A DNA stretch of 64,000 nucleotides from Terriglobia bacterium (GTDB lineage: Bacteria > Acidobacteriota > Terriglobia > Bryobacterales > Bryobacteraceae), in contig JAJPIT010000017.1 of NCBI GenBank assembly GCA_021324615.1, forward strand, positions 19,021-83,020, read 5' to 3'. Position numbers and translations under genes: made by a program. Positions within the stretch are counted from its first letter, which is position 1. Every line of letters starts with the position of its first letter. Below, piece after piece: positions 8,938-30,943 of this stretch. The notes under the pieces are model-generated. The model was not told the origin of the DNA and searched no databases. It was given only the letters and a program-made list of their open reading frames with translations.

Positions 8938-8979
8938 CGTATCGCTTCGCTTAAAAACACAGGCCTGGCCGGCTCCGCG

Positions 8980-11900
8980 TCAATCTCCATAGGCCGGCTC
9001 CGCCTCGATCGTCTCCGGATGCCGCTTTCTCCACCACTCGAGCAGCGCCGACATATACGTGTAAACCACCGGAGTCAAATACAACGTCACCATCTGCGAG
9101 ATCAGCAGGCCCCCGCAGACCGCCAGCCCCAGCGGACGCCGCGCTTCCCCTCCCGAGCCGTAGCCCAGCGCCATCGGCACCGCGCCCAGCAGCGCCGCCC
9201 AGGTCGTCATCATGATCGGGCGGAAGCGGATCAGGCAGCCTTCATAAATCGCCTCGGCCGGCGTTTTGTTCCCCTTGCGCTCGGCTTCCAGCGCAAAGTC
9301 AATCTGCATGATCGCGTTCTTCTTCACCAGGCCGACCAGCAGCACCAGCCCGACGAAGGAATAAATGTTCAGATCCACGTGGAAAACGATCAGCGTCGCC
9401 AGCGCGCCCAGGCACGCCGACGGAAGCCCCGAAAGAATCGTGAACGGATGAATGTAGCTTTCATACAGCACGCCAAGCACGATGTACACCACCCCGATGG
9501 CCACAATCAGCAGCACCGTCAGGTTCTTGAGCGAGGCCTGAAACACCTGCGCCGTGCCGGTGAACATCACCTGCATGGTGTCGGGAAGCGTGCGCGCCGC
9601 CACCGCGCTCAGCCGGTCCACCGCTTCGCCCAGCGAAACCCCGTCCTTCAAGTTGAAGGAGATGGTTACCGAGGGCAGCACCGAGGTGTGGTTGATCGTC
9701 TGCGGCATCGCATCGTCCTTGATCTTCACCACTTCCTTCAGCGGAATCAGCGCGCCATTGGAGGCATGGAAATAAATCTTGGACAGGTAATCCGAATAGG
9801 CCTGATATTTCTGCTGGATCTCCATCAGGACCTCGTACTGGTTGGTGGGCGAATAGATGGTCGAGCTCCACTTGGGGCCGTAGCCGGCGTACAGCGCGTT
9901 CTCGATCTGCGTCACGTCCAGGCCCAGCGAGGCCGCCCGGTCCCGGTCCACAATCACGTTCACCCGCGGGCTCTTGATCTGCAAATCGGTGTTCACGTCG
10001 ACCACGTAATCGGTCTCCTTCTGCACCGCCTCCAGCAGCCGGTTTGACTCCCGCGCCAGCGCCTCCGTGTCCGGGCTCAACACCGTCAGCTCATAGGCCG
10101 CCCGCGAGCCGCGCGTGCCGATATTGATCGTCGGCGGAACGCGCATGAACGTCTGGAATCCCGGAAAGCGGCCGATCTTGGGCCGCAGCTCGTCCATCAC
10201 CTGCGCCATGGTCAGGCGGCGCTGGTTGGCCGGCTTGAGGATAATGTTCATGCTGGCTTCGTTGCCGCCGTGCCCGCCGAACCCCCCGCCCACGCTGGAC
10301 ATGAACGTATCGACGTTGGGATCGTTGGCCACAATGTCCGCCACAGCCTGCTGGTACTTCAGCATTTCGTAAAACGAAGTGCCTTGCGCCGCCACCATCT
10401 GCAAATTGATCTGGTCGATGTCCTGATCCGGAATGAATCCCTTGGGAACCTTGGCGAACAGATACAGCGTCGCGCCGATCACCACGAAGAACATCACCGC
10501 CATCACCGGCCGGTATCTCAAAACCCGCTTCAGGCTCCATTCATAAAGCTGGAACTGGCGGTTGAAGAACCACTCGGTGGCCCGGTAAATCACGTTGTGG
10601 CGCTGGTGGGGATCGTGCGCCTTCAGAAAACGGCTGCACAGCATCGGCGTCAAGGTGATCGAAACCAGGCCCGAAATCAGAATCGCCACCGTGATCGTCA
10701 CCGCAAACTCCCGGAACAGGCGCCCCAGAATTCCGCCCATGAACAGAATCGGGATGAACACCGCCGCCAGCGAGACGGTCATGGATACGATGGTGAAGCC
10801 GATCTCTTTGGAACCCTTCAGCGCCGCCTCAAACGGCGGCTCGCCCAGCTCGATGTGCCGCACGATGTTTTCCAGCATCACGATCGCGTCGTCCACGATG
10901 AAGCCGATCGCCAGAATCAGCGCCATCATCGACATGTTGTCCAGGCTGAAATCCAGCGTCGCCATCAGCGCCAGCGTGCCCAGCACCGTGAACGGCAGCG
11001 CCAGCGAGGGAATCGTGGTGGCCGAGACGTTCCTCAGGAAAAAGAAGATCACGCCCACCACCAGCACCAGCGTGATCAGCATGGTGATCTCGATGTCGTC
11101 GAACGCCCGCCGGATGCTCACCGAACGGTCGCCCCGGACCATCAGCGTCAGCGCCGGCGGAAGCTGCTGCCGGAACAGCGGAATCAGCGCCCGCACCCGG
11201 TCGGTCACCTCCACCGTGTTGGTCCCCGGCTGCCGCATCACCATCAGCGTCACCGCGCGGTTGGCGTGCAGCTTGTTCGTCTTCTCGTCGCGCGTGTAAA
11301 CCCAGGCAGCCTGCTTGTCATCCTGCACGCTGTCGATCACGCGGGCCACGTCCTCCAGATGAACCGGGCGCCCGTTCTGATACGCAATGGTCAGCTTGCG
11401 GAACTGCGCCGCGTTGTAAAGCTGGCCGTTGGCGTAGATGTTGTACTCCATCTTGGGCCCGTACAGCGTCCCCAGCGGGCTGTTGACGTTCCACTGATTG
11501 AGCTGGTTGTCGATGTCGTTCAGCCCGATGTGCAGCGCCGCCAGCGCGTCCGGATCCAGTTGCACCCGCACCGCGTATTTCTGCTGCCCCATCACCTGCA
11601 CCTGGGAAACCCCGTTGATCATGGCGATGCGCGGCGCCACCTGCGTCTCGGCGAACTCGTCGATGGTCGACATCGGCAGCGTGTCCGAATACAGGCTCAG
11701 GAAAATGATGGGCTGGTCCGACGGATTCTGCTTGTGGAACGACGGCGGAGCCGGCAGGCCCGCCGGCAGCAGCGGGGTTACCGCCGCGATCGCGCTCTGC
11801 ACATCCGTCGCCGCACCCTCGATGTCCCGGTCCAGGCTGAATTGCAGGCTCACGTTGGTGCTGCCGGTGGAGCTGCGCGAGGTCATCGAATCCAGCCCCG

Positions 11901-12123
11901 CAATTCCGGTAAACTGCCGCTCCAGCACCGACGCCACGGCCGAAGACATGGTGCTCGGATCCGCCCCCGGCAGGCTGGCGTTGACGTTGATCGTCGGGTA
12001 GTCCACCGTCGGCAGATCGCTCACCGGCATCGCCCGGTAGCCGATCACTCCGAACAACGCGATCCCCGCCATCAGCAGGCTGGTGGCAATGGGACGCCGG
12101 ATAAATACTTCGGAGAAATTCAC
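8980..12123 (-). CDS. RND efflux permease (AcrB/MdtB-like, HAE1 family), tandem paralogue of the downstream pump
   Basis: 1047 aa. The N-terminus MNFSEVFIRRPIATSLLMAGIALFG and overall collinearity match 5806-8937. Confidence 0.9.
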   Translation of the reverse strand: MNFSEVFIRRPIATSLLMAGIALFGVIGYRAMPVSDLPTVDYPTINVNASLPGADPSTMSSAVASVLERQFTGIAGLDSMTSRSSTGSTNVSLQFSLDRDIEGAATDVQSAIAAVTPLLPAGLPAPPSFHKQNPSDQPIIFLSLYSDTLPMSTIDEFAETQVAPRIAMINGVSQVQVMGQQKYAVRVQLDPDALAALHIGLNDIDNQLNQWNVNSPLGTLYGPKMEYNIYANGQLYNAAQFRKLTIAYQNGRPVHLEDVARVIDSVQDDKQAAWVYTRDEKTNKLHANRAVTLMVMRQPGTNTVEVTDRVRALIPLFRQQLPPALTLMVRGDRSVSIRRAFDDIEITMLITLVLVVGVIFFFLRNVSATTIPSLALPFTVLGTLALMATLDFSLDNMSMMALILAIGFIVDDAIVMLENIVRHIELGEPPFEAALKGSKEIGFTIVSMTVSLAAVFIPILFMGGILGRLFREFAVTITVAILISGLVSITLTPMLCSRFLKAHDPHQRHNVIYRATEWFFNRQFQLYEWSLKRVLRYRPVMAVMFFVVIGATLYLFAKVPKGFIPDQDIDQINLQMVAAQGTSFYEMLKYQQAVADIVANDPNVDTFMSSVGGGFGGHGGNEASMNIILKPANQRRLTMAQVMDELRPKIGRFPGFQTFMRVPPTINIGTRGSRAAYELTVLSPDTEALARESNRLLEAVQKETDYVVDVNTDLQIKSPRVNVIVDRDRAASLGLDVTQIENALYAGYGPKWSSTIYSPTNQYEVLMEIQQKYQAYSDYLSKIYFHASNGALIPLKEVVKIKDDAMPQTINHTSVLPSVTISFNLKDGVSLGEAVDRLSAVAARTLPDTMQVMFTGTAQVFQASLKNLTVLLIVAIGVVYIVLGVLYESYIHPFTILSGLPSACLGALATLIVFHVDLNIYSFVGLVLLVGLVKKNAIMQIDFALEAERKGNKTPAEAIYEGCLIRFRPIMMTTWAALLGAVPMALGYGSGGEARRPLGLAVCGGLLISQMVTLYLTPVVYTYMSALLEWWRKRHPETIEAEPAYGD

Positions 12124-12142
12124 GGAAACGCCTCTTCAGGCC

Positions 12143-13480
12143 TTAAGTGGACTTGCCCCGGCCCCGGCCGCCGCGCCCTCCGCCCGGCCCGCCCGGCGGG
12201 CTGTCGTCGCCGCTCCCGTTCCGGATCTGCACCCGCGAGCCCGGAGCCAGCCGCAACTGGCCCTCCGTCACCACCGTGTCCCCCTCTTCCAGGCCCTTTT
12301 CAATCACCAGATCCTGATCGACGCGCGGTCCGGTCACCACCGGGCGCGCCTCCACCGTCTTGTCGTCCTTCACCACATAAACGAACGTCCCGTCCTGACC
12401 GCTCTGCACTGCCTGGTTGGGGACCACCAGCGCATGCGGCCGCACCGTCAACTGCAAGGTCACGTTCACATACTGGCCCGGCCACAGCTTGTGATCAGCG
12501 TTGGGAAACGTGCCCTTCAGCTTGATCGTTCCCGTGGTGGGATCCACGCTGTTATCGACAAAGGTCAGCTCGCCGTGCTCCACCGCGTCGCCGTCCTGGG
12601 TCCGCGCCGTCACCGGCAGCTTGCGGACCGCCATGTAGCGCTTGATGTCGGGCAGATTCGCCTCCGGCACGGCGAACGTCACGTAAATCGGCTCCAGTTG
12701 CGTAATCGTATCCAGCACTGTCGAATTCGCCGTCACCACGTTGCCCAGCTTCACCGTCATGTTCCCGGTCTTGCCGTCGATGGGCGAAAGAATGGTGCTG
12801 TAGCTGAGCTGGATCTTGGCGTTCTCAATCGTCGCTTCGTCAGCCTGGGCCTGCGCCTTGGAGCTTTCGATCGCCGCCCGGTCGGCCGCCACCGACTGCG
12901 CGATGGTGTCGGCGTTGGTCAGATACTGGTCGCCCTGCTCCTTGGAAACGATGCCTTCATCAAACAGCTTGGCGTAACGCTGCGCCTCGGCCCGCGCATA
13001 CTTCTCCGACGCCATGTCCCGCGCCAGATTCGCCTGCGCCTGCGCCAGCAAAGCCCGGTCCCGCGCCAGATTGGCGATGTTCTGTTGAAGCTGCGCCTCC
13101 AGCGGCCGCGGATCGATCATGAACAGCTTCTGGCCTTTTTTGACGATGTCGCCTTCGGTGAAAAACACCTGGGTGAGCTGCCCGCTCACCTGCGGCACCA
13201 CGTTGATCGTCGAGTACGCTTCCACGTTCCCCACCACCGAGACGCTGATCGGGACGTCCTTTTCCGTTACCTTGGCCACCACCACCGGCGCCGGGCCGCC
13301 GCCGTCAAAGCTGCGGCGCCCGCCCTTTCCCTTGCTGCTTTTCTTGTCACCGCCGCCGGAAGGATCCGCCGTGTCCGCCGTCGTCGAGCCCACGCAGCCG
13401 TGCAGCAGCAGGACCGCGAGCAAACATACGAAAATGGCCCCGGTTTTCGTACGCGTCGAAGGATGGAAGAGTGCTTTCAC
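12143..13480 (-). CDS. RND efflux periplasmic adaptor (membrane fusion protein, MdtA/AcrA-like), lipoprotein
   Basis: Lipobox LLLHGC. Coiled-coil hairpin (LEAQLQQNIANLARDRALLAQAQANLARD) and a beta-barrel region (LSYSTILSPIDGKTG). It lies immediately upstream of the two RND genes. Confidence 0.88.
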   Translation of the reverse strand: MKALFHPSTRTKTGAIFVCLLAVLLLHGCVGSTTADTADPSGGGDKKSSKGKGGRRSFDGGGPAPVVVAKVTEKDVPISVSVVGNVEAYSTINVVPQVSGQLTQVFFTEGDIVKKGQKLFMIDPRPLEAQLQQNIANLARDRALLAQAQANLARDMASEKYARAEAQRYAKLFDEGIVSKEQGDQYLTNADTIAQSVAADRAAIESSKAQAQADEATIENAKIQLSYSTILSPIDGKTGNMTVKLGNVVTANSTVLDTITQLEPIYVTFAVPEANLPDIKRYMAVRKLPVTARTQDGDAVEHGELTFVDNSVDPTTGTIKLKGTFPNADHKLWPGQYVNVTLQLTVRPHALVVPNQAVQSGQDGTFVYVVKDDKTVEARPVVTGPRVDQDLVIEKGLEEGDTVVTEGQLRLAPGSRVQIRNGSGDDSPPGGPGGGRGGRGRGKST

Positions 13481-18302: not shown

Positions 18303-19742
18303 TCATTTCAGTCCGGCCCGCTTCCAAAGCTCATCGACGCGCCGCCGCACGTCTTCGCTCATCCGGATCACGCCGGGCCACGGCCGGCTAAATCCTTCCC
18401 CGGGCCACTTCCTGGTGGCGTCGACGCCCATTTTCGAGCCGAAATTCGGCAGGCGGCTCGAATGATCGAGAGAATCGACCGGCCCCAGCACAAACTGGAT
18501 ATCCCGCTCCGGGTCGATGTTGTTCAGCGCTTTCCAGGCCACTTCGCTCACATTCTGCACGTCCACGTCTTCATCCACCACCACGATGCACTTTGAAAAC
18601 ATCGCTTGTCCCAGACCCCAGATGGCGTGCATGACCTTGCGCGCCTGGCCCGGATAGGATTTGCGGATCGAAACCAGAATCAAGTTGTGAAAAATTCCTT
18701 CGGCCGGCATGCAGATATCGCGGATTTCCGGCAGTTGCAGGCGCATCAGCGGCAGAAAGATGCGCTCGATCGCCTTGCCCATGTAGAAATCCTCCATGGG
18801 CGGGGGACCCACGATGGTTGTCGCGTAGATCGGCTTTTTGCGATGCGTCACGCAGGTCAGATGAAACACCGGATAGTCGTCTTCGAGCGAATAAAATCCG
18901 GTGTGATCGCCGAAGGGACCCTCGCGGCGCAGCTCGCCCGCTTCGACATATCCTTCGAGCACGATCTCGGCCTGCGCCGGGACCTCCAGATCGACGGTTT
19001 CGCATTTGACCATCTCCACCGGCTGGCGGCGGAGGAAGCCGGCGATCATCATCTCGTCCAGATCGGGCGGCAGGGGCAGGATCGCCGAGTACATGGTGGC
19101 CGGATCAGCGCCGATCGCCACGGCGACGTCCATGCGTTTCTGCGGCGAGCGGCGGTAGTGCTCGGCGCCCTGTTTGTGGGTCTGCCAGTGCATGCCGGTG
19201 GTGCGGGCGTCGTAAACCTGCATGCGATAGCAGCCGCAATTTCTCTTTCCGGTATCCGGATTTTTGGAAAAAACCATCGGCAGGGTGATGAACCGCCCGC
19301 CGTCCTCGGGCCAGCACTTGAGAACCGGAAATTCGTCCAGCGAAAAATCCTCGCGCCGGATCACCTCCTTGCAGGGGCCGCCGGAAACCATTTTCGGAAA
19401 GAACGCGCCCATTTCGGCGAGCTTCGGCAGCATCTTCAATTTGCCGATCAGGCCCTCGGGCATCCGCATCTCAAGAAACTCCGATATGCGGCGCGCGATC
19501 TCGTCCACGGATTCGACTTCCAGCGCGAGCTCCATTCGCCTCATGCTGGCGAAGGCGTTGATCAGAACCGGGACGCTCGATCCTTTTGGCTTTTCGAACA
19601 GCAGCGCCGGGCCGCCCGATTTGACGCTGCGGTCAGCGAACTCGGCGATTTCCAGTTCCGGATCGACCTCAAACGAGATTCGCTTCAGCTCTTTTGCTTT
19701 TTCGAGCGCGTGAACGAACTCGCGCAGGTCCTCGTAAGCCAT
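18303..19742 (-). CDS. UbiD-family (prenyl-FMN dependent) decarboxylase
   Basis: From the internal Met, MAYEDLREFVHALEKAKELKRISFEVDPELEIAEF is a classic UbiD N-terminus and gives 479 aa. The longer ORF to 20180 would run antisense through fabG. Confidence 0.85.
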   Translation of the reverse strand: MAYEDLREFVHALEKAKELKRISFEVDPELEIAEFADRSVKSGGPALLFEKPKGSSVPVLINAFASMRRMELALEVESVDEIARRISEFLEMRMPEGLIGKLKMLPKLAEMGAFFPKMVSGGPCKEVIRREDFSLDEFPVLKCWPEDGGRFITLPMVFSKNPDTGKRNCGCYRMQVYDARTTGMHWQTHKQGAEHYRRSPQKRMDVAVAIGADPATMYSAILPLPPDLDEMMIAGFLRRQPVEMVKCETVDLEVPAQAEIVLEGYVEAGELRREGPFGDHTGFYSLEDDYPVFHLTCVTHRKKPIYATTIVGPPPMEDFYMGKAIERIFLPLMRLQLPEIRDICMPAEGIFHNLILVSIRKSYPGQARKVMHAIWGLGQAMFSKCIVVVDEDVDVQNVSEVAWKALNNIDPERDIQFVLGPVDSLDHSSRLPNFGSKMGVDATRKWPGEGFSRPWPGVIRMSEDVRRRVDELWKRAGLK

Positions 19743-19752
19743 AATTTCTACT

Positions 19753-20463
19753 ATGACAAACAGGACCGCATTGGTTACGGGCGCAAGCCGCGGCATCGGG
19801 TTGGCGTGTGCGCAGGCGCTGGCCGCATCCGGCGCCAAAGTCGTGCTGGCGGCGCGGGATTGCGCCAAACTTGAAGCCGCGGCGGCGGGGATTCCCGGCG
19901 CGAGCTGGGTGGAGTTGGATCTCGCCTCGCCCGAATCGATCAGGGCCGCGTTCGCCAAAGCCGGACGCGTCGATATTCTGGTCAACAACGCCGCCATCAC
20001 CAAAGACGGCCTGGCGCTGCGAATGAAAAAAGAGGACTGGGACGGCGTCATCGCCACCAATCTCACCGGAGCTTTTCTCGCCATCCAGCAAGTGCTGCCG
20101 GGCATGATGAAGGAGCGCTGGGGACGCATCATCAACATTTCTTCGGTCGTCGGCCAGGCGGGAAACGCGGGGCAGGCCAACTACGCCGCCTCCAAAGCGG
20201 GCTTGATCGGGATCACCAAATCGCTCGCTCAGGAGATGGGGAGCCGCAACATTACCGTGAACGCTGTCGCGCCGGGATTTATCGAGACCGATATGACCGC
20301 CGCGCTGTCCGATGAGTTGAAATCGGCGATGCTCGCCCGGGTTCCCTTGAAGAGATTCGGCGCGGCCGGCGAGGTGGCCGCGGCGGTGCGCTTTCTGGCG
20401 AGCGAAGAGGCGGGTTATATCACGGGCCACGTGTTGAATGTCAATGGCGGGATGTACATGTAG
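19753..20463 (+). CDS. fabG: 3-oxoacyl-[ACP] reductase FabG (SDR)
   Basis: Contains TGASRGIG, NNAAIT, the catalytic YAASKAG and the C-terminal GHVLNVNGGMYM. Confidence 0.88.
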   Translation: MTNRTALVTGASRGIGLACAQALAASGAKVVLAARDCAKLEAAAAGIPGASWVELDLASPESIRAAFAKAGRVDILVNNAAITKDGLALRMKKEDWDGVIATNLTGAFLAIQQVLPGMMKERWGRIINISSVVGQAGNAGQANYAASKAGLIGITKSLAQEMGSRNITVNAVAPGFIETDMTAALSDELKSAMLARVPLKRFGAAGEVAAAVRFLASEEAGYITGHVLNVNGGMYM

Positions 20464-21904: not shown

Positions 21905-22969
21905 TCAGCGCATCGCGATGGAGGCCACGATCAACCCGCGCTCGCGCCCGTCGGAGGCGTCGGGAGGCAAACTCTTATCGAGCGAAAACTTTAAAATCGC
22001 GGCCCCCCGCGGCAAGGACCGGGTCAGGGTGTGCATTCCTTCGCGATCGAAGAAGGCCGGCTCCAGCGCGCCGGATTCGGTCGCCATCGCCATGGTCACC
22101 GGACCGGCGCGCTCCAGCAGCTCCGGCGGAATATAAATCTCCATGGCGATGCTTTGGCCGGCGGGCCGCAGGGCGAACACCCGTTCGGTCCACCGCCATC
22201 CGCCGGGCTCCGGCTGGTGCCATCCCGAAACCAGTTCCACCTCGGCCAGGCCGTACCGGCTGCGCAGCAGGCAGAAGCGGCGCTCATCGCGGTCCAGGCT
22301 GGTGGCGTCGGAATCGGCCGTATCGCCCAGACTGAACTCGCTCACCACGCGCCATCCGCTCCGCTCGACCACGCGACTCAATCCGGCTTCGGAAAAGATC
22401 CAGAAATTCGAATTGTCGTGATTCAGCTCATCGGCGTCCAGCAGATAGGCGCAGGCGGCATCTGCCGGAACGCGCCCGATTTTCGGGAATTTACGCGCGA
22501 TTCTGGTGCTGAGGATGCAATAATGGGCTGCCGCGGCGGCGTTTTCCAGCACGTAGAAGGGATTTTTCAGATGGTAAAGCACGCCGAGCAGCAGGCACAC
22601 TCCGAAGCGCCGCTCGAATTTGGGAAAATGCGCGTCGAGGTCGGCCTCCCGCAAATCGATCTGAGAACCGAGCAGGCGCCGCAGCAGCCGGACGCCGCGC
22701 ATCCCGTTGTGATTGGGCCCGGGATGATCGACCGCGGTCACCGCGTAGCCGAGCGACTCGAAGTAGAACGACAGATCGCCGTCGCCGCAGCCCAGATCGA
22801 GCACGCCGTGCTGGCGCGCCGCGGCCTGGACTTGTTCGCTCCAGAATGCGTCGATATGCGCCAGATTGCTGAGGGAATCGTAGCGATACCATTCAAAGCC
22901 GGCGCCGGATCCGGCTTTGGCGCGGCGAAGCCGCTCCCGGAACTCCATTGGGGGCTGCGCCGCCTTCAT
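21905..22969 (-). CDS. class I SAM-dependent methyltransferase with an uncharacterised C-terminal domain of about 170 aa
   Basis: Motif I is VLDLGCGDGDLSFYFESLGYAVTAVD. The start is taken at MKAAQPPMEF (ATG 22969), which forms an ATGA overlap with the pxpA stop. The longest ORF goes to 23098. Confidence 0.72.
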   Translation of the reverse strand: MKAAQPPMEFRERLRRAKAGSGAGFEWYRYDSLSNLAHIDAFWSEQVQAAARQHGVLDLGCGDGDLSFYFESLGYAVTAVDHPGPNHNGMRGVRLLRRLLGSQIDLREADLDAHFPKFERRFGVCLLLGVLYHLKNPFYVLENAAAAAHYCILSTRIARKFPKIGRVPADAACAYLLDADELNHDNSNFWIFSEAGLSRVVERSGWRVVSEFSLGDTADSDATSLDRDERRFCLLRSRYGLAEVELVSGWHQPEPGGWRWTERVFALRPAGQSIAMEIYIPPELLERAGPVTMAMATESGALEPAFFDREGMHTLTRSLPRGAAILKFSLDKSLPPDASDGRERGLIVASIAMR

Positions 22970-23757
22970 GGGATCCTGGAGCCCGCCGGGGTCCGGCCGC
23001 CGCCCGCCAGCGGGCGCAGCAGGACGCCGTTTTGCCGAAGCTTGCGGGCCACCGCCGCGGCGATTCCGGGAGCCCCCGGTGTGTCGCCGTGAATGCAAAT
23101 CGTGTCCGCGCGAAGCTCCAGCTTCGATCCGGAGACGGCGGTGGCGCCTTCCCCGCGGGCGATCCGCAGCGCCTGTTCGGCGGCCTGCTCCGGATCGCGG
23201 ATGAGCGCGTCGTCGAAGTTGCGGGACCGCAGCGTGCCGTCGGCCTCATAGCGCCGGTCGGCGAAGGACTCCGCCGCGGCGCGAAAACCGGCGTCCCGGA
23301 AGGCCTCCAGCATCGGCGAGCCGGCCAGCCCCACCAGCACCAGATCCCGGCTAAACCGCGCCACCCCGCGGGCGATGGCGCGCGCCAGTTCCGGCCGGTT
23401 CACCGCGTCGTTGTACAGCATCCCATGCGGCTTGACGTGAACCAACTCCGCTGCCGATGACGACGCCGCCTGAGCCAGCGCGCGCACCTGCTCGAACACC
23501 GTGCGCTCGATCTCCTCCAGCGGCAGATTCAGGCTCCGGCGTCCGAAGTTCTCGCGGTCCGGATATCCGGGATGCGCGCCGATTGCCAGGTTCCAGCGCC
23601 GCGCCTGCTCGATGGTGGCCTTCATCGTATTCTCGTCCCCGGCATGGCCGCCGCAGGCGATATTCACGCTGGTGATCGAAGGCATCAGCGACTCCTGCGT
23701 GCCGTCGGCGATCTGCTCCGGTATTTCGCCCATATCGCAATTCAAGTCGATGTGCAT
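22966..23757 (-). CDS. pxpA: LamB/YcsF-family protein (5-oxoprolinase subunit A homologue, PxpA) with no adjacent pxpB/pxpC
   Basis: MHIDLNCDMGE at the N-terminus, plus NIACGGHAGD and GAHPGYPD motifs. 263 aa. Confidence 0.82.
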   Translation of the reverse strand: MHIDLNCDMGEIPEQIADGTQESLMPSITSVNIACGGHAGDENTMKATIEQARRWNLAIGAHPGYPDRENFGRRSLNLPLEEIERTVFEQVRALAQAASSSAAELVHVKPHGMLYNDAVNRPELARAIARGVARFSRDLVLVGLAGSPMLEAFRDAGFRAAAESFADRRYEADGTLRSRNFDDALIRDPEQAAEQALRIARGEGATAVSGSKLELRADTICIHGDTPGAPGIAAAVARKLRQNGVLLRPLAGGGRTPAGSRIP

Positions 23758-23795
23758 AGCTGTATTGTCCCGCGCCGGCCGCCGGGTCTGCCGCG

Positions 23796-25988
23796 CTAGG
23801 GGCGGGTTGCCAACAGCTCCCTGCGGTCGACGTGTTCGCCTTTGAAGAACACCGCGGAGATCCGTTCGGTGGAGGAAATATCTTTCAGCGGATTGCCGTC
23901 CACCAGCAGCAGGCTCGCCTCGTATCCTTGGCGGATCAGCCCGATTCGATGGGCGGCGCCGAGCAACTTCGCGTTGTTGTACGTCGCCGCCTGGAGTGCC
24001 ATCGCCGGCGGCACTCCCGCCTCCACCCAGAGCTGCAGCTCGCGATGAATTCCCGGCCCGTGGATCACCTGCGGATTGCCCGCGTCCGTGCCCGCCGCCA
24101 GCATCACGCCGGCTCTCATCGCCGCCGCCAGATTCTGCTTGGCCAGATCGAGCGAAAACACCCAGCCGCGGAACCGGTCCTGCGAATTTCCCTCCGCGAC
24201 GATCTTTTTGGTATCCGCCAGCAGCTTCGGCGGAGCCACCTGCTGCACGAGTGAACGCTCCAGGGGATCGGTCTTGTGCCGCACGTAATCGCTGTAAGCC
24301 TCCACCACCGTCAGGGTCGGATCGTAGGCCGTGCCGTTCTGCTTCATCCGCTCGAACAGCGCTGGCGGAATCGCGTCGCGCATGGACCCGTGCTCTATGC
24401 CGTCCACGCCGGCATCGACCGCATCGGCGACGTCTTTTGAGTCCCCGGTGTGGCAGACGACCGGCAGCTTGTCGGCGCGCGCCTCCGCCGCAATCGCGCG
24501 CAGCAGCGCGGGATCGAGCCGCGGGATGCGGCCGTCCGGCCCGCCCTCCAGAATCGCCTTGATCCCGTCCACGCCGAGTTTCTTCAACTCATCCACCTGC
24601 GCCCGGGCCTCTTCCGGCGTCTTCGGCAGCCGCACTGTCTGCGCCTGGAACTGCGCCTGAAGCTCCTTCGGCAGATACTGCGCGTATTCGGTGCCGTGCC
24701 CGCCCGGTGCGGTGAACATGGGACCGACGGCGAACAGCTCCGCGCCTTCCTTTTCGCCCGAGGCCAGCGCCGCCCGGTCCTTCAACATCAGGTCGGTCTC
24801 GTCTCCCACGCTTTTCACCGCCGTCACGCCGCTGTAAAGATACGCCGCCAGCTCGCGAAAAATGTAGTCGCCCTGCGAGGTCCAGTCCTTGGCATCCGCG
24901 TAGAATCCGCCGGGCGAGCCCAGGTGCACGTGCACGTCGATCAGGCCCGGAAGCAGCGTTTTCCCCGCCCCGTCGATCGATTCGGCGTTCAGGCTTTTCG
25001 CATCGGGCGCGGCGCCCGTGAAAATTTCCGCGATTTTCCCGTGCCGGATCAGCACCGAGCCTTGTTCGATCACCGTGCCGTCGCCGGTGAACAGCCGCGC
25101 GTCGTGGATCAGATAGCTGCGGTCGCGCTCGATCTGGCGTTCGAGAATCTGGCCCTTGACCACGTTGTTCTTGGCGTGAAGCTGCCAGGCGCCCATCACG
25201 AAGAACGGCGCAAGCACCGCCGCCAGCCACAGCTTCGAGGAGGCGCGCATCTTTTCTTCCTTCTCCCAGCGGAATAACTTCACCGCCAGAAACGTTCCGA
25301 GAAGGGCGGTGACTGCCAGAATTGCGGCCGCTTCGAGATTGGCTGTAAAATCCTCGTGATTTTCCAGCATTCCCGTCAACCCGGTGGTGAGGTATGTGGT
25401 GGGGATGAACTGCGCGACTTGCTGAAGCCAGTCCGGCATGGTGCCCAACGGAAAGGTGGCGCCGCCCAGAAACAGCATCGGGAAATAGAGGATCTGCACG
25501 AGAATCTGGCTCTCCTGCATGGAGTTCGCGATCGCGCCCACGATTCCTCCAATCGCCCGGAACGCCAGCAGGCCCAGCAGCACGAACGCCAGCAGCGACC
25601 AGGGATGATCGAGCGGCGGCATGTGATACATCACCCGCGCAAGCAGCAAAACCAGAAACGTCACCGGCACGTAGTGCACCAGTCCGGTCACCAGTTGGCC
25701 CACCAGAATCGGGGCCGGCGAGATCGGGGCGACCTTGAATCGCCGCAATATACTCTGCTCGCGGTCCTGCACGCTCCGCATCCCCGCGCCAAACAGCCCT
25801 GACGCCAAAATTCCGAGCGAAAGCACCATGTTCACCACGGTAACGATCACGCCGCCGCGCTCGGCGTGCAGCAGCGTTCCGAAGATGAAAAAGAAGATCA
25901 GCGGGAAGATGTAGTTGAAGAACAGCACGGTGCGGTCGCGCATGGTCAGGCGCAGGTTGGCTTGAATCATCGCCAGATAGGGTTTCAT
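23796..25988 (-). CDS. fusion protein: ABC-2-type transporter permease (N-terminal about 260 aa) plus metal-dependent amidohydrolase (C-terminal about 440 aa)
   Basis: The N-terminus MKPYLAMIQANLRLTMRDRTVLFFNYIFPLIFFFIFG and six hydrophobic segments indicate an ABC-2 permease. One further TM follows (LWLAAVLAPFFVMGAWQL). The rest carries amidohydrolase motifs: LLPGLIDVHVHLG, GIEHGS and AAGTDAGNP. Confidence 0.8.
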   Translation of the reverse strand: MKPYLAMIQANLRLTMRDRTVLFFNYIFPLIFFFIFGTLLHAERGGVIVTVVNMVLSLGILASGLFGAGMRSVQDREQSILRRFKVAPISPAPILVGQLVTGLVHYVPVTFLVLLLARVMYHMPPLDHPWSLLAFVLLGLLAFRAIGGIVGAIANSMQESQILVQILYFPMLFLGGATFPLGTMPDWLQQVAQFIPTTYLTTGLTGMLENHEDFTANLEAAAILAVTALLGTFLAVKLFRWEKEEKMRASSKLWLAAVLAPFFVMGAWQLHAKNNVVKGQILERQIERDRSYLIHDARLFTGDGTVIEQGSVLIRHGKIAEIFTGAAPDAKSLNAESIDGAGKTLLPGLIDVHVHLGSPGGFYADAKDWTSQGDYIFRELAAYLYSGVTAVKSVGDETDLMLKDRAALASGEKEGAELFAVGPMFTAPGGHGTEYAQYLPKELQAQFQAQTVRLPKTPEEARAQVDELKKLGVDGIKAILEGGPDGRIPRLDPALLRAIAAEARADKLPVVCHTGDSKDVADAVDAGVDGIEHGSMRDAIPPALFERMKQNGTAYDPTLTVVEAYSDYVRHKTDPLERSLVQQVAPPKLLADTKKIVAEGNSQDRFRGWVFSLDLAKQNLAAAMRAGVMLAAGTDAGNPQVIHGPGIHRELQLWVEAGVPPAMALQAATYNNAKLLGAAHRIGLIRQGYEASLLLVDGNPLKDISSTERISAVFFKGEHVDRRELLATRP

Positions 25989-25991
25989 GGG

Positions 25992-26954
25992 CTACTCCCT
26001 CAACCGTTTTCCGGTCAGTTCGATGAAGACATCCTCCAGCGTCGGACGCTTCAGGTGAATATCTTCGAGATCAAGGCCGTTCTGATCGATCCACTTGACC
26101 AGCTCCGGCAGGGTTCGAGCCGGGCGCGTGGAGTACACGGTAAGGGTCCGAGCTCCGCCGCCGAGCACGCTCCGGTCGGCGGCCTCAAACCTTGGCACCT
26201 CGGCCGGCATCGGCTGCGCGGTGGCGATTTCGATCCGCGATGTTCCGAGCGTGCGCGATTGAATTTCGCGCGGCGACCCCAGCGCGATGATCTTTCCCTG
26301 ATCGATGATGGCCACGCGGTCGCATAACCGCTCGGCTTCCTCGATGTAGTGGGTGGTGAGCAGGATGGTCCGCCGGGCGTCGCGCAGCTCCGCGATCAGG
26401 CTGTGAATTTCCAGGCGCACCTGCGGATCGAGACCTGTGGTCGGCTCATCCAGAAACAGCAGCGAAGGGTCGTTCACCAGGGCCAGCGCCAGAGCCACGC
26501 GCTGCTTCTGGCCTCCGGATAATTTCGAGTAGTACTCGTTGCGCTTTTCGGTCAATTGCAGGCGCGCCAGGAGCTTGCCGGGGTCCGCCGCGCGCGAATA
26601 AAACGAGGAAAATAATGCCAGCGCTTCGCGGACCGTGATTTTATCGGGCAGGTTGGTGGATTGCAGGCAGACCCCGATGCGGTCCTTGACCGCGCGCGAA
26701 TCGGTTGCCGGATCGTAACCGAGCACGCGCACTTCTCCGCCGCTGCGCGGGCGCAGACCTTCGAGAATTTCCACTGTGGTCGTTTTTCCCGCTCCGTTGG
26801 GTCCCAGCAGCCCGAAGACTTCGCCTGTATTGACCTCGAAGTCGATGCCGCGAACGGCCTGAAAATCGCCGTACGATTTTTGCAACCCCGCCACGCGAAT
26901 CGCGCATTCCATGGCTTTCATTTTAGCCGCGGGCCCTGGCGCAATCTGCGCCAA
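25992..26954 (-). CDS. ABC transporter ATP-binding protein (ABC-2/DrrA-like)
   Basis: Walker A GPNGAGKTTT, signature LSGGQKQRVALA and Walker B LLFLDEPTTGLD. It ends 3 nt before the permease start. The true start may be ATG 26921 or 26912. Confidence 0.9.
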   Translation of the reverse strand: MAQIAPGPAAKMKAMECAIRVAGLQKSYGDFQAVRGIDFEVNTGEVFGLLGPNGAGKTTTVEILEGLRPRSGGEVRVLGYDPATDSRAVKDRIGVCLQSTNLPDKITVREALALFSSFYSRAADPGKLLARLQLTEKRNEYYSKLSGGQKQRVALALALVNDPSLLFLDEPTTGLDPQVRLEIHSLIAELRDARRTILLTTHYIEEAERLCDRVAIIDQGKIIALGSPREIQSRTLGTSRIEIATAQPMPAEVPRFEAADRSVLGGGARTLTVYSTRPARTLPELVKWIDQNGLDLEDIHLKRPTLEDVFIELTGKRLRE

Positions 26955-27022
26955 ACCGGCAAGTTGCGGAAGGAGACGGACGAACGGCCGAAGCGGAGCG
27001 TAAATGCGTGTTTCGGCTCGCG

Positions 27023-27091
27023 ATGCGCTGTCCGGAATGTCACAGTGTTTCCCGCGTTGAGACGCCGTACTGCCCAGTCTGCTTGTATTGA
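27023..27091 (+). CDS. candidate 22-aa zinc-ribbon micro-protein (MRCPECHSVSRVETPYCPVCLY)
   Basis: Read directly from the 287-bp spacer. Two CPxC knuckles are separated by 11 residues. An in-frame GTG at 27008 lies 9 nt after GGAG. It is too short for the ORF track. Confidence 0.3.
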   Translation: MRCPECHSVSRVETPYCPVCLY

Positions 27092-27241
27092 TTCAGGGTT
27101 GAGGATCACGCGCGGTGGAATTTTGAAAGGCGCCGGTGGAAATACCGAGCCGGCGCGGCCGCCGTCGGGCTGTCGGTAGCGATTCTGCATTACGCGCTCC
27201 GCGGTGGTGAAACAGTCCGCGGTTGGGCGCGTCCAGCTTAT

Positions 27242-28351
27242 GTGAAAATCGCGCAGGTCGCGCCGCTGTGGGAACGGGTGCCTCCCCGGCTTTACGGCGG
27301 GACGGAGCGGGTGGTCGCCTATCTGACCGACGCGCTGGTCGAAGCGGGACATGACGTTACGCTATTCGCCAGCGGGGACTCTCTCACCAAGGCCCGGCTG
27401 GTCGGCGTGGGCGATTGCGCCCTGCGCCTGGACCCCCGCCCGCGCGATCCGCTATTGAGCCATCTGATGCTGATCGAGACCGTTCTCCGCCGGGCGGACG
27501 ACTTCGATCTTATCCATTTTCATATCGATCACATCCATCTGCCGGTCACAGCCCGCACCGGCGCGGTCCACGTAACGACACTGCACGGCCGGCTGGACGT
27601 TCCGGAACTGGATCGGATGTGCCGGTTATTTCCGAGGGCCCCGGTGATTTCGATCTCCCACGCGCAGCGGCGGCCGCTTCCGTGGCTGAATTGGGTGGCC
27701 ACGGTTTATCACGGGCTTCCTCCCGATCTGCTGCGCCCGCAATTGGCTCCCGGAAAATATCTGGCGTTTCTCGGCCGCATCTCACCTGAGAAGCGCCCGG
27801 ACCGCGCCATCGAGCTGGCCAAGCGGCTCGGCATCCCGCTGCGGATCGCCGCCAAAGTTGACAAGGCCGATCAGACCTATTTTGAAGCCAAGATTAAACC
27901 GCTGCTCGACTGCCCGCTGGTCGAGTACGTGGGCGAGATCGGGGAAGAAGAAAAATCGGAGTTTCTGGGCAACGCCTGCGCGCTGGCCTTTCTCATCGAC
28001 TGGCCGGAACCGTTCGGGCTGGCCATGATCGAAGCGATGGCCTGCGGCACGCCCACCATCGCCTTCGCCTGCGGATCGGTGCCGGAGGTGATCGAACACG
28101 GCCGCAGCGGATTCGTGGTCCATTCGATGGAGGAGGCCGTGGAAGCGGCGAAAAACATCGGCGCCATCGACCGCGCGGCGTGCCGGAGAATCTTCGAGCA
28201 GCGCTTTTCGGCGTCGACAATGGCCGAAGGCTACGCCGCCGCCTATGAAAAGTTGACCGGCGCGCAGGGCGCGTCCAGGAAGAAAACCGGCAGCCGCGCC
28301 GGCCCTCCGCCGGTGCTGCTCGAGGAGCCGCATCTCGGTCCAAGCCGTTAG
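27242..28351 (+). CDS. GT4-family glycosyltransferase
   Basis: The N-terminus MKIAQVAPLWERVPPRLYGGTERVVAYLTDALVEAGHDVTLFASGDS and the C-terminal EPFGLAMIEAMACGTPTIA (E-x7-E region) are typical of GT4/GT-B enzymes. Confidence 0.85.
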   Translation: MKIAQVAPLWERVPPRLYGGTERVVAYLTDALVEAGHDVTLFASGDSLTKARLVGVGDCALRLDPRPRDPLLSHLMLIETVLRRADDFDLIHFHIDHIHLPVTARTGAVHVTTLHGRLDVPELDRMCRLFPRAPVISISHAQRRPLPWLNWVATVYHGLPPDLLRPQLAPGKYLAFLGRISPEKRPDRAIELAKRLGIPLRIAAKVDKADQTYFEAKIKPLLDCPLVEYVGEIGEEEKSEFLGNACALAFLIDWPEPFGLAMIEAMACGTPTIAFACGSVPEVIEHGRSGFVVHSMEEAVEAAKNIGAIDRAACRRIFEQRFSASTMAEGYAAAYEKLTGAQGASRKKTGSRAGPPPVLLEEPHLGPSR

Positions 28352-29139
28352 TCTTTGTGCCGCGCGTTCAGGTCGCGGGAAAGCATCAGCTTGAGCGTCA
28401 GCCGGTCCGCCCCGGCGGTCACGCCCACGCCGACGCCCGCTTCGATGTTCACCCACCGGGTGTTGTGATCCATCACCGCCCAGACCTCCTGAAACTGATC
28501 GTGCGCGGGAAGGAACTGCCGGAGCGGGCCGAAATCGGCGTACTCCTCAGCGGCGACCGCCCACTTGTCGTTGAAATTATAGGCGACGCGCGTGGCCGGC
28601 ACGAATTCCAGATTGCCGAAGCCGCCGGTGAAGTTGGTGTCGACGATCGGATTGAAAATAATATCGACCGGATGAAGATGCACGCCCACGATCGGCCGCA
28701 CCTCGGAGGTGATCCGGCGCGACTCCCAATAGTTCGCGTTCACGCTGAACTCGTAATTGACGCCCCAAAAAATCTTGTGCTCGGCGGCGTGCGGGCGCAC
28801 GAACAGCTCGCGAATTTTGAACCCGTTGATGGTCGCGCCGCGGCCCTGCGAGTAGAAGCTGTAGACCGGCAGGTACAGGCCCTGCTCGAACCAGTCGGTC
28901 ACGCCGTAGTCCCATTCGGATGCGCCGTTGACCGAGTCGTTGGGGATGATCGCGCCGGGGTAATCCGGCGTTTTCCGCCCGATCGGCGTGAAATTGGTGT
29001 GAATCATCAGGTTGAAGACGCCTTTTTCAGCGATTTCGGCGTCGTAAACCTGAATCTCATCAGTCTGGGCGCGGAGCGCGGCGGGCGAGCAGAGCAACAG
29101 AAGCCACAGAAAATGCCGATGTTTTCCGAAGAGGGTCAT
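28348..29139 (-). CDS. putative outer-membrane beta-barrel protein (MetA/phenol-degradation-like transporter family)
   Basis: From the internal Met, the signal peptide is MTLFGKHRHFLWLLLLCSPAALRAQ. An alternating aromatic/hydrophilic beta-strand pattern runs to the C-terminus. The family assignment is tentative. The stop overlaps the GT4 stop (TTAG). Confidence 0.55.
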   Translation of the reverse strand: MTLFGKHRHFLWLLLLCSPAALRAQTDEIQVYDAEIAEKGVFNLMIHTNFTPIGRKTPDYPGAIIPNDSVNGASEWDYGVTDWFEQGLYLPVYSFYSQGRGATINGFKIRELFVRPHAAEHKIFWGVNYEFSVNANYWESRRITSEVRPIVGVHLHPVDIIFNPIVDTNFTGGFGNLEFVPATRVAYNFNDKWAVAAEEYADFGPLRQFLPAHDQFQEVWAVMDHNTRWVNIEAGVGVGVTAGADRLTLKLMLSRDLNARHKD

Positions 29140-29243
29140 GATCAGAGCGCCGGCCGGCGATCTTTCACTATATTCAAGCCGCTGATTGGCCGCAAGATGC
29201 GCGTCGCCGGATGAGGCGGAAGCGGGAGGCGGAAAATTCCGGG

Positions 29244-29271
29244 TCAACAAATGCCATCCGCCGGACGATAA
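29244..29271 (+). promoter_or_regulatory. candidate sigma28 (FliA)-type promoter for fliD
   Basis: TCAA-N16-GACGATAA compared with the consensus TAAA-N15-GCCGATAA. The -10-like element ends 7 nt before the GTG at 29279. Confidence 0.3.
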
Positions 29272-29278
29272 GACCAGC

Positions 29279-30943
29279 GTGAGCACTAGCCCGTCCCTGT
29301 TAACGTCATCCAACGGCATCCCCTTTACCGGCGTAAGCCAGTACGCCAGCACGTTCCAGTCGCTTCTGAACGCGTCGGTGCAAACGGCGGAGATTCCGAT
29401 CACGCAGCTTCAGAACGAGGATTCGACGGTTCTCTCGCGGGAAGCCTCGCTCGGCAGCCTTCAGTCGTCGGCCGCGAACCTGACCAGCAGCTTGAACGCG
29501 CTGGCCGCGTTGGCGGGAGGGCAGGCTCTCAGCGCGTCCAGCTCGGACCCGAGCGTGGTCACGGCGACTGCCACCGGGGCGACGTTGCCGGCTTCGTATA
29601 CGATCAACTCGGTGACATCGCTCGCCTCGGCGGCATCGGAGGTGAGCGTCAACAGCTACGCCAGCGGCACGGCGACGCCGGTCTCCAACGGGACGATGAC
29701 GCTGGTGGCCGGGGGCCAGTCCTACACTTTGAATCTGGCGGCGAACAATTTAAACGCGCTGGTGTCGGCGATCAACGGCGCCGGAGCGGGCGTGACCGCG
29801 TCGGTGATTCCGAATGGATCGGGCAGCCAGCTTTCCATCCGCTCCAACGGCGGGCCCGAGTCGATTCAGTTGTACGACGGCGTCTCGGCCAGCGGAACGG
29901 ACTTGATCACCAACACCGGATCGGGCGTGGAGACCAGCACGGCGACCTACGCCGATCCGGCCTCGACGCAGGTTTCCAAGGGCGTGATGACGCTGGTGGC
30001 CGGCTCGCGCCAGTACACGTTTGCGCTCAGCGGAAATAATCTGGTGGCGCTCGCGCAGGCGATCAATTCGCAGAATGCCGGCGTCACGGCCTCGATCCTG
30101 ACCACCTCCTCCGGCGATTATCTTTCGGTTTCGGCCAATCAAAACGGCGCGACGACGCTGGCGCTTTACGATGGCGCCACGGCCGGCGGAACGGATCTGC
30201 TCACGCAGAATCATCAGGGCAGCGACGCGCAGTTCCAGCTCGATGGAATCAGCATATCGGAGCCCGGCAATACCATCAACGACGTGATTCCGGGACTAAC
30301 CTTCACGCTCACCGGCACCAGCTCCTCGCCGGCCACAATTTCGCTGGCGAGCGATCCGTCACAGCTTTCCTCCGCGCTTCAGAATTTCGTCACCAGCTAC
30401 AACTCGCTTCAGACCGCGGTTCAGGCGCAGGAGGGGCCAAACGCCGGGCCGCTGGCCGGCGACAGCGTCGTGGGGCAGCTTCAGACAATGCTGAACCAGA
30501 TCGCCGCCTATACCAACATCGGCGGCGGCATTCAAAGCCTCTCAGATCTCGGCGTGGATTTCAACAGCGATACCGGACAGCTCTCCTTCGATCAAACGGC
30601 CTTCGACGCCCTCAGCCAGAGCCAGATCCAGCAGGCCTTCCAGTTCCTGGGATCAAGCACCGCCGGATTCGGCGCCTTTGCCACGCAAATGAGCGGCTTC
30701 AGCGATCCGGTGACCGGCCTGATTCAAGCCGAGATCACCGGAGACAAGAAAACGGATTCCGATCTTCAGAACCAGATCGCCAATCTCCAGGACCAGGTCC
30801 ACCAGATGCAGATCAGCCTCACGCAGCAGTTCGAGAACGCCGACGCGCTTCAGCAGGAGCTGGAAAATCAGCAATCGGCTCTATCGGCGAGTTTGAACGG
30901 GCTGAACCTGGTGCTCTACGGGCGGAACACGACGTCGTTCTAG
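29279..30943 (+). CDS. fliD: flagellar filament capping protein FliD (hook-associated protein 2)
   Basis: N-terminal heptad region (YASTFQSLLNASVQTAEIPITQLQNEDSTVLSREASLGSLQSS), central repeats and a C-terminal coiled coil (LQNQIANLQDQVHQMQISLTQQFENADALQQELENQQSAL). The start is taken at GTG 29279 (VSTSPSLLTSSNGIPFTG). The ORF track starts at 29186. Confidence 0.82.
   Translation: MSTSPSLLTSSNGIPFTGVSQYASTFQSLLNASVQTAEIPITQLQNEDSTVLSREASLGSLQSSAANLTSSLNALAALAGGQALSASSSDPSVVTATATGATLPASYTINSVTSLASAASEVSVNSYASGTATPVSNGTMTLVAGGQSYTLNLAANNLNALVSAINGAGAGVTASVIPNGSGSQLSIRSNGGPESIQLYDGVSASGTDLITNTGSGVETSTATYADPASTQVSKGVMTLVAGSRQYTFALSGNNLVALAQAINSQNAGVTASILTTSSGDYLSVSANQNGATTLALYDGATAGGTDLLTQNHQGSDAQFQLDGISISEPGNTINDVIPGLTFTLTGTSSSPATISLASDPSQLSSALQNFVTSYNSLQTAVQAQEGPNAGPLAGDSVVGQLQTMLNQIAAYTNIGGGIQSLSDLGVDFNSDTGQLSFDQTAFDALSQSQIQQAFQFLGSSTAGFGAFATQMSGFSDPVTGLIQAEITGDKKTDSDLQNQIANLQDQVHQMQISLTQQFENADALQQELENQQSALSASLNGLNLVLYGRNTTSF
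29681..30214 (+). repeat. intragenic tandem duplication inside fliD (two units of about 80 aa, offset 291 nt)
   Basis: Unit 1 is VSNGTMTLVAGGQSYTLNLAANNLNALVSAINGAGAGVTASV...LYDGVSASGTDLITN. Unit 2 is VSKGVMTLVAGSRQYTFALSGNNLVALAQAINSQNAGVTASI...LYDGATAGGTDLLTQ. From memory, this resembles the flagellin/hook 'IN' repeat motif. Confidence 0.75.

Follow-up and report, generated by a model that had tools for sequence, protein, structure and literature searches.

To our knowledge, the coupling of an ATP-binding cassette (ABC) transporter to a periplasmic hydrolase has been shown only recently and only for a type VII system, YbbAP-TesA, and ClbP-like prodrug enzymes are the only peptidases known to occur fused to an exporter. 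In YbbAP-TesA, a type VII ABC transporter is bound to a periplasmic esterase, and the proposed role of the complex is to extract hydrophobic compounds and hydrolyse them (PMC12646458). In ZmaM, EdeA and PamJ, a ClbP-like prodrug-activating peptidase is fused to an ABC half-transporter (PMC9889268). Here we describe a gene found in a 64,000-nucleotide stretch (hereafter the window) of contig JAJPIT010000017.1 from a Terriglobia bacterium of the Bryobacteraceae (GCA_021324615.1). It encodes a 730-aa protein in which a type V ABC-2 permease is followed by a seventh transmembrane helix (TM7) and an amidohydrolase assigned to the cog1228/M38 clade, and the gene of an ABC ATPase lies immediately upstream. 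The general concept has precedents in other folds, while the type V-M38 combination is new, widespread and uncharacterised.

The composition seen in a first-pass annotation of the sequence, an ABC-2 permease with an additional seventh helix and a complete metal amidohydrolase, was borne out by Pfam, hydropathy and AlphaFold2 (AF2). The Pfam matches are ABC2_membrane (PF01061) at residues 5-206 (89.4 bits, cutoff 26.9), ABC2_membrane_3 (PF12698) at residues 49-236 (80 bits, cutoff 31.6) and Amidohydro_1 (PF01979) at residues 344-719 (96.1 bits, cutoff 25, E 3.3e-27). The AF2 model of the whole protein has a mean predicted local distance difference test (pLDDT) of 84.1 and a predicted template modelling score (pTM) of 0.82. 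We confirmed that the fused gene is genuine and no assembly artefact, since the architecture of about 730 aa is present in all of the 120 best protein matches and in 80 of 80 retained genome loci. The 120 matches, drawn from NCBI, ENA, JGI and Logan assemblies, have 60-100% identity and the same four Pfam domains. The 80 loci match the query from residue 1 to about 726 and are spread over Bryobacterales, Terriglobales/Acidobacteriaceae and 'Ca. Acidiferrales' within the acidobacteriotal class Terriglobia, the closest being a Terriglobia metagenome-assembled genome (MAG) with 93% identity. Fused orthologues, and not two separate genes, are the rule in Terriglobia.

These 80 loci are the ones seen at full length in a scan of one genome per species that returned at least 583 confirmed relatives; the scan patterns sit in the permease half, and some of the other 503 relatives could be split forms. 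Several loci are on closed or megabase long-read contigs. A search of 1.84 billion cluster representatives gave 25 full-length fusion clusters (at 50% identity) among the best 150 matches, reaching down to 29-32% identity. In the cluster look-ups, and for a 5.25-Mb contig, only MAGs were found and no cultured strain. Word searches of the literature for fusions of an ABC-2 permease with an amidohydrolase returned no description of the architecture, and neither a described family nor a substrate emerged from the comparison with the literature and NCBIfam. The architecture had been called unfamiliar; it is, however, not rare, being widespread in Acidobacteriota and already annotated automatically in JGI and NCBI, where the labels are either 'amidohydrolase family protein' only or both COG names. 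The features of the two genes, all on the minus strand, are as follows.

23796..25988, minus strand: whole fusion gene, one unbroken open reading frame (ORF) of 730 aa plus stop, with type V ABC-2 permease, TM7 and M38/cog1228 amidohydrolase
25254..25988, minus strand: predicted six-helix ABC-2 (type V) transmembrane domain (TMD), residues 1-245, by profile (PF01061/PF12698) and fold matches
25725..25751, minus strand: conserved motif ILRRFKVAP of the TM2-TM3 cytoplasmic loop, residues 80-88, putative coupling helix assigned by position only
25251..25280, minus strand: TM6-TM7 cytoplasmic loop KLFRWEKEEK, a basic motif and family signature
25173..25244, minus strand: TM7, residues 249-272, a hydropathy peak and AF2 helix, predicted to cross from cytoplasm to periplasm
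25125..25169, minus strand: predicted periplasmic linker helix between TM7 and the hydrolase, residues 274-288, from AF2 secondary structure
23808..25118, minus strand: predicted periplasm-facing amidohydrolase (PF01979), residues 291-727, with a subtype I binuclear metal centre
24924..24932, minus strand: metal ligands of the HxH motif, H353 and H355, by alignment
24696..24704, minus strand: conserved GGH motif with H431, aligned with TGGH of 2qs8 and ADH3
24558..24560, minus strand: metal ligand K477, bridging and carboxylatable, by alignment; absent from the first-pass list
24450..24452, minus strand: metal ligand H513, by alignment; absent from the first-pass list
24390..24392, minus strand: metal ligand H533, by alignment
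24084..24086, minus strand: metal ligand D635, by alignment
25992..26954, minus strand: ABC ATPase ORF, DrrA/NodI-like (ABC_tran, 1.8e-30) with a DrrA1-3_C C-terminal domain (2e-5)

In the membrane half, hydropathy and AF2 show a core of six helices followed by a seventh at about residues 249-272 (ASSKLWLAAVLAPFFVMGAWQLHA), inside which lies the stretch LWLAAVLAPFFVMGAWQL that had been quoted as the extra helix. In the PDB, a profile of the N-terminal 290 residues matched only the TMD of ABCH-9C (E 4e-11). Residues 1-292 were also modelled separately with AF2 (pLDDT 78.6), and Foldseek of this model gave ABCH-9C (ceramide; E 1.6e-4), KpsM (TMt 0.67-0.71), Wzm (0.64-0.66), TarG and ABCG5/8, with NosY of the NosDFY complex as a weaker match (0.53-0.60). 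No match to PF02687 or PF12704, expected for an FtsX/MacB_PCD permease, was found in the Pfam scan, and the fold is type V. In the two PDB fold searches, no matched chain spanned both a permease and a hydrolase domain. Considering its score, its N-in six-helix core and the adjacent ATPase, we class the N-terminal half as a predicted ABC-2 (type V) permease, and as far as the models tell it resembles lipid and glycolipid exporters, the closest folds carrying lipidic or lipid-linked cargo.

The basic loop between TM6 and TM7 is a signature of the family. Residues K237-K243 are invariant in both homologue alignments (A1 and A2), and FRWE is invariant in the aligned fused forms. Among the relatives described below, the triple fusion and the CIA30 forms also have the motif, and the split permease keeps LFRW. 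Around TM7 and the junction, K252, W254, P261, G266, R284 and L293 are invariant in the homologue alignment, and the linker residues R284 and R288 are conserved.

With an odd number of helices, the hydrolase had been expected to face the periplasm, and the distribution of charges is in line with this. There are 4 K/R at the N-terminus, 4 K/R in the stretch QDREQSILRRFK of the TM2-TM3 loop (residues 74-85, overlapping the invariant ILRRFKVAP) and 5 K/R in the TM6-TM7 loop RWEKEEKMRASSK, against no K/R and 5 D/E in the TM5-TM6 loop. From 17 complete stand-alone relatives of the hydrolase (about 33-40% identity), 15 start with a signal peptide, a signal anchor or a lipobox. Four independent lines support a periplasmic location of the hydrolase: this positive-inside pattern, the export signals of the relatives, a split orthologue with its own anchor and a natural triple fusion. 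Release by signal peptidase after TM7 (…VMGAW|Q) was also considered; the site does not fit the AXA rule by eye, and cleavage is unlikely.

The motifs quoted in the first-pass annotation for the hydrolase are all present, with LIDVHVHLG containing H353 and H355, GIEHGS containing H533 and GTDAGNP containing D635. All 42 homologues have the same six metal ligands, which align with those of 2qs8 and ADH3, and from the same two alignments H431 of the GGH motif is assigned as the putative oxyanion-hole histidine. By sequence the active site is intact, and the hydrolase is predicted to be catalytically competent. By sequence, its PDB matches are 2qs8, ADH3 (8ihq), Cc2672 (3mtw), 3be7, 3feq and 4c5y (E 1e-17 to 1e-33), at 24-28% identity to solved enzymes. 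By Foldseek, the matches are 2qs8, 9kov, 3mtw, 8ihq, 3be7 and 3feq (E 1e-22 to 7e-26, TMt 0.78-0.87), and the model has the (beta/alpha)8 barrel and beta-sandwich of solved amidohydrolases.

All of these nearest solved proteins, by sequence and by fold, are within the cog1228/M38 clade, whose enzymes cleave the amide bond to a C-terminal amino acid, including that of long-chain N-acyl amino acids; many of them are degradative and secreted. Among the relatives, 2qs8 is an Xaa-hydrophobic dipeptidase, Cc2672 and 3be7 are Arg/Lys carboxypeptidases, and 3feq/3n2c and 3mkv are N-acyl-Pro prolidases. Others are ADH3 and related bacterial ochratoxin amidohydrolases, the A. niger ochratoxinase and long-chain N-acyl-amino-acid acylases, as well as CaeD and ColD, which trim a C-terminal auxiliary Leu in bipyridine antibiotic biosynthesis (caerulomycin). 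Against NF051886 (Caulobacter Xaa-Pro dipeptidase), the only NCBIfam equivalog of this clade, the fusion scores 176.9 with a cutoff of 500; since this is far below the cutoff, we assign the hydrolase to the clade by sequence and not as an orthologue of a characterised enzyme. Because its relatives are cog1228/M38 enzymes, an amide bond to a C-terminal amino acid appears a likelier target than a lactam.

The ATPase ORF contains Walker A (GPNGAGKT), the signature (LSGGQK) and Walker B (LLFLDE). As noted in the first pass, it ends exactly 3 nt upstream of the fusion (stop TAG, then CCC, then the permease ATG), and a Shine-Dalgarno-like GAGGGAG is located within its 3' end. Since homologues are 306-310 aa long, the true start is probably M12 (26921) or M15 (26912) and not the TTG at 26954. 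A scan of 22800..27400 gave no promoters, and terminators at chance level. The NCBIfam scores are below the trusted cutoffs both for TIGR01188 drrA on the ATPase (272.9 bits, cutoff 312.45) and for TIGR01247 drrB (59.6 bits, cutoff 223.05), so the pair is judged DrrAB-like and not a member of the DrrAB family.

The neighbourhood was compared over 83 loci by tblastn and all-vs-all clustering. The ATPase gene is upstream of the fusion in all 83, and no other neighbour is conserved across them. PxpA, the methyltransferase and the GT4 gene that flank the window gene were each found in one locus out of 83, and DJ-1/PfpI in 17. PxpA (LamB/YcsF, 5-oxoprolinase subunit A; 22966..23757, minus strand) starts 38 nt downstream of the fusion stop, and neither gene beside it, the fusion upstream or the methyltransferase downstream, is PxpB or PxpC. 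A link to 5-oxoprolinase was rejected, and PxpA is not considered part of the system, since the adjacency occurs in just 1 of 83 related loci. Non-ribosomal peptide synthetase (NRPS), polyketide synthase (PKS) and ribosomally synthesised and post-translationally modified peptide (RiPP) genes are absent from the window, and none is conserved across the 83 loci. The lack of a conserved neighbour and the presence in hundreds of Terriglobia species favour a stand-alone housekeeping or defensive role over a biosynthetic step.

Some relatives have other gene arrangements. In a split orthologue (L084, and independently L092), an ATPase, a 271-aa ABC-2 permease and a 660-aa hydrolase are encoded in this order. 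The split permease keeps TM7 and stops 3 residues later (…AALWQAQ*), and in L084, after a gap of 32 nt, the hydrolase opens with its own anchor (MISVKSKLYVTIFIALSLLTAVAW). As TM7 is already present in the split permease, we conclude from these sequences that the seven-helix permease predates the fusion, which removed a stop codon and a signal anchor. A fused relative of 905 aa (P0149, L086:6001-8718) carries an extra C-terminal CIA30 domain. Its hydrolase has 58% identity over 632 residues with the split form (P0188) and 37-40% with the window protein, and its locus and the split loci have in common a histidine kinase (54% identity) and a LytTR regulator (61%), both orthologous. Of the 25 fused hydrolase domains in a neighbour-joining tree, 21 fall into a single clade and the other 4 group with stand-alone enzymes. 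The closeness of the P0149 hydrolase to the split form and the division of the fused domains in the tree indicate that fusion or fission occurred more than once.

A single chain of 1053 aa (P0189) unites ABC_tran, ABC2_membrane and Amidohydro_1; its composition is high-GC-like, and it is attractive for structural work. Related secreted hydrolases adjoin different ABC-2 systems in three further loci (L085, L087 and L089). Judging by these loci, the association of this hydrolase clade with ABC-2 transporters is recurrent, in three gene arrangements. Another protein (P0259, 488 aa) has the 7-TM permease, an Ala/Ser-rich linker and a CIA30-like domain with no amidohydrolase, and this pairing suggests that the permease is a platform for periplasmic modules.

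Some observations concern only these relatives. CIA30 (PF08547) is C-terminal to the hydrolase in some fused and stand-alone forms (P0149, P0171, P0188 at L084:1645-3630, and P0192). The CIA30 fold is possibly carbohydrate-binding, and its presence hints at a glycan-associated substrate or location in the lineages that carry it. A LytS-type histidine kinase (PF06580) and a LytTR regulator follow the split and CIA30-fused systems (L084:3608-6850, L086:8842-12965, L092:3624-6882), and a related LytTR (37-41% identity) with a kinase fragment is upstream of the hydrolase in L088:2-1368. Expression may be inducible in lineages with this pair. The linkage is real for the CIA30 subclade, but neither the window nor any of the 83 Terriglobia loci has the pair, and we made no use of it for the window gene. 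In L089:1-7407, a stand-alone hydrolase (P0182) is downstream of a YcaO gene, an unknown gene, a separate tetratricopeptide repeat (TPR)+CIA30 protein and two ABC2_membrane_2 permeases, which could be a RiPP-like context, observed a single time. A gamma-glutamyl transpeptidase gene is three genes away, on the opposite strand, from a trio of hydrolase-CIA30, ABC_tran and ABC2_membrane_2 (L085:10107-11819, L087:11365-13077). It could hint at processing of glutathione conjugates, although the two loci are syntenic and count as one observation.

Putting these results together, we lean slightly towards a two-gene ABC machine in which export or membrane extraction is coupled to periplasmic amide hydrolysis. 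A dimer of the DrrA-like ATPase would power a homodimer of the type V permease, as type V exporters generally work as dimers, and with such a homodimer the complex would carry two hydrolase domains. The permease would flip, export or extract an amphipathic amide compound from the inner membrane to its periplasmic face. There the tethered metallo-amidase would receive it and cut the amide bond to its C-terminal amino acid, so that transport and hydrolysis would be physically coupled, by either export and cleavage or extraction and cleavage. The candidate substrate would be an N-acyl-amino-acid, lipoamino-acid or peptide-like compound; it may be made by the cell itself, as a metabolite or part of the envelope, or come from outside as a xenobiotic that is detoxified. 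Since the closest permease folds carry lipids or glycolipids and the closest enzymes cut N-acyl-amino-acids and ochratoxin, a lipoamino-acid, a lipopeptide or a xenobiotic amide would be the most plausible class of cargo. The first-pass annotation had already proposed export coupled to extracytoplasmic hydrolysis. This part stands as the best-supported reading, given that the hydrolase clade adjoins ABC-2 transporters in three arrangements, while the suggested lactam substrate appears less likely. A natural-product role finds no support at the locus; remodelling of the surface or of envelope lipids is possible. More tentatively, it is conceivable, if somewhat doubtful, that the covalent machine feeds a lipidic molecule of the N-acyl-amino-acid type straight into the tethered active site, with TM7 as the ancestral docking element, and that this molecule is an envelope lipoamino acid or an incoming antibiotic or toxin of the lipopeptide or N-acyl-amino-acid kind.

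Some points weigh against coupled transport and cleavage. NosY, the weaker fold match, is itself an ABC-2 permease, and cryo-electron microscopy of NosDFY is reported to suggest that it supplies energy to a periplasmic partner instead of exporting a substrate, which leaves true transport uncertain here. M38 enzymes are usually octamers or dodecamers, assemblies out of reach for a dimer tethered to the membrane. In P0259 the permease is combined with a CIA30-like domain and no hydrolase, which means that other modules fit this permease, and the neighbourhoods of the 83 loci yield no clue to a pathway.

The first of these points leads to the rival reading that survives best, although we consider it unlikely: the complex would transmit force instead of transporting, as in NosDFY or FtsEX, and the hydrolase would act on a periplasmic or envelope substrate that never passes through the permease. 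The structural match of the TMD to NosY (TMt 0.53-0.60) fits with this, as does P0259 with the same 7-TM permease and a different periplasmic module. The covalent link and the conservation of TM7, of the linker and, without exception, of the KLFRWEK loop would also suit force transmission, for which there is precedent in type VII systems. However, the better matches of the TMD (ABCH-9C, KpsM and Wzm) are genuine exporters or flippases, the ATPase is DrrA/NodI-like, and the amidohydrolases of this clade are constitutively active, soluble and with no known need for energy.

A lower probability still is given to a scavenging periplasmic carboxypeptidase that uses the permease as a mere anchor, the substrates of transporter and enzyme being unrelated. 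It would agree with the many degradative and secreted cog1228 enzymes, and at the locus of one relative (L088) the neighbour is a TonB-type outer-membrane protein and there is no ABC gene close by. Yet a single signal-anchor helix, such as related enzymes have, would suffice for that purpose. Functional coupling is favoured by hydrolases having been joined to, or split from, one permease family repeatedly, by the triple fusion and by the adjacency to other ABC-2 systems.

It is very improbable that the system matures a prodrug, exporting an amide-capped precursor whose cap is then removed by the fused hydrolase, as ClbP, XcnG and ZmaM, or CaeD and ColD, do. There are parallels: in ZmaM, EdeA and PamJ an extracytoplasmic peptidase is joined to an ABC half-transporter (PMC9889268), CaeD and ColD trim a C-terminal Leu in the synthesis of bipyridine antibiotics, and one stand-alone relative is near a YcaO gene and ABC-2 permeases (L089). 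But the 64-kb window holds no NRPS, PKS or RiPP gene, no biosynthetic neighbour is conserved over the 83 loci, and the gene is near-ubiquitous in two Terriglobia orders, unlike the patchy biosynthetic clusters.

The joining of two separate genes by a missed stop codon, a frameshift or a chimeric assembly has next to no probability: another acidobacterial class does have split orthologues and the GC content of the two halves is unequal (about 0.60 vs 0.66), but frame and length are identical in the 120 matches and in the 80 loci, which stem from independent projects and partly lie on closed long-read MAG contigs, the residues at the permease-hydrolase junction are conserved, and a hydrophobic membrane domain would give just such a difference in GC.

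Elsewhere in the window, two tandem genes of AcrB-family resistance-nodulation-division (RND) pumps (1043 and 1047 aa) follow an HlyD-type membrane-fusion gene (5806..13480, minus strand), an MdtABC-like arrangement. A 351-aa ORF (28348..29403, minus strand) has no Pfam match at E <= 1e-5. About 110 residues in there is a hydrophobic stretch (LWLLLLCSPAALRAQT), a signal peptide should the true start lie further in. The ORF overlaps a FliD flagellar cap gene as called mechanically (29186..30943, plus strand), a long ORF whose real start is probably further downstream. A UbiD-family ORF (18303..20180, minus strand) is over-extended at its 5' end and overlaps a FabG-like reductase gene (19753..20463, plus strand). 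As its Pfam match starts only at residue 157 and the FabG-like gene is on the opposite strand, the overlap is an artefact of mechanical ORF calling.

Terriglobia rank with the most abundant bacteria of soils and are little understood, and a two-gene module present in hundreds of their species points to an unrecognised function in the envelope or in defence. A type V exporter coupled to a metallo-amidase would carry the coupling principle to a third, unrelated combination of folds. Direct feeding of the active site, if true, would be a case of substrate channelling not yet shown for any ABC-2 transporter. The naturally tethered 1:1 complex, together with its single-chain variant, suits structural work on the hand-off of substrate, and the relatives of the hydrolase, ochratoxin-detoxifying enzymes and N-acyl-amino-acid acylases, are of biotechnological interest.

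Within the known systems, the permease shares with DrrAB/NodIJ-type exporters and with the structurally solved KpsMT, Wzm-Wzt, TarGH and ABCG/ABCH exporters of type V the six-helix N-in ABC-2 core, the type V fold and a separate ATPase with a DrrA-type C-terminal domain. It differs from all of them by the addition of TM7, the KLFRWEK loop and a periplasmic enzyme of 440 residues. The enzyme has the fold, the HxH/Kcx/H/H/D centre and the GGH histidine of cog1228/M38 proteins (2qs8, 3mtw, Sgx9260b/c, ADH3, the A. niger ochratoxinases, PmAcy and CaeD), but those are soluble or secreted, stand alone without a fused transporter and mostly form octamers. NosDFY, an ABC-2 complex serving a periplasmic partner in the maturation of N2O reductase, is similar in having an ABC-2 permease with a periplasmic protein module and in the recognisable fold match of NosY. 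NosD, however, is a separate beta-helix protein, there is no permease-fused enzyme in that system, and the locus described here has no Nos genes.

YbbAP-TesA is alike in the physical coupling of an ABC ATPase and permease to a periplasmic hydrolase, in the proposed extraction from the inner membrane for hydrolysis, and in being a stand-alone module without obvious pathway neighbours. In contrast, its permease is of type VII (FtsX/MacB fold, with 10 TM helices and periplasmic domains), whereas that of the fusion is a type V ABC-2 permease. Its hydrolase is an SGNH esterase/thioesterase and not a binuclear-metal amidase, and its partners bind non-covalently, in Proteobacteria, instead of being covalently fused. 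ZmaM, EdeA and PamJ share with the fusion an ABC exporter covalently joined to an extracytoplasmic amide-bond hydrolase and cleavage coupled to export, the latter being here a proposal. Their peptidase, however, is an N-terminal S12 serine enzyme (PF00144) with three TM helices, a family without a match in the fusion; their ABC half-transporter domain is fused C-terminally, whereas here the ATPase is a separate gene; and they are found in NRPS/PKS clusters, mostly of Firmicutes, none of which applies to this locus. The fusion of the window thus differs from both the YbbAP-TesA and the ZmaM types in permease fold, enzyme, domain order and genomic context.

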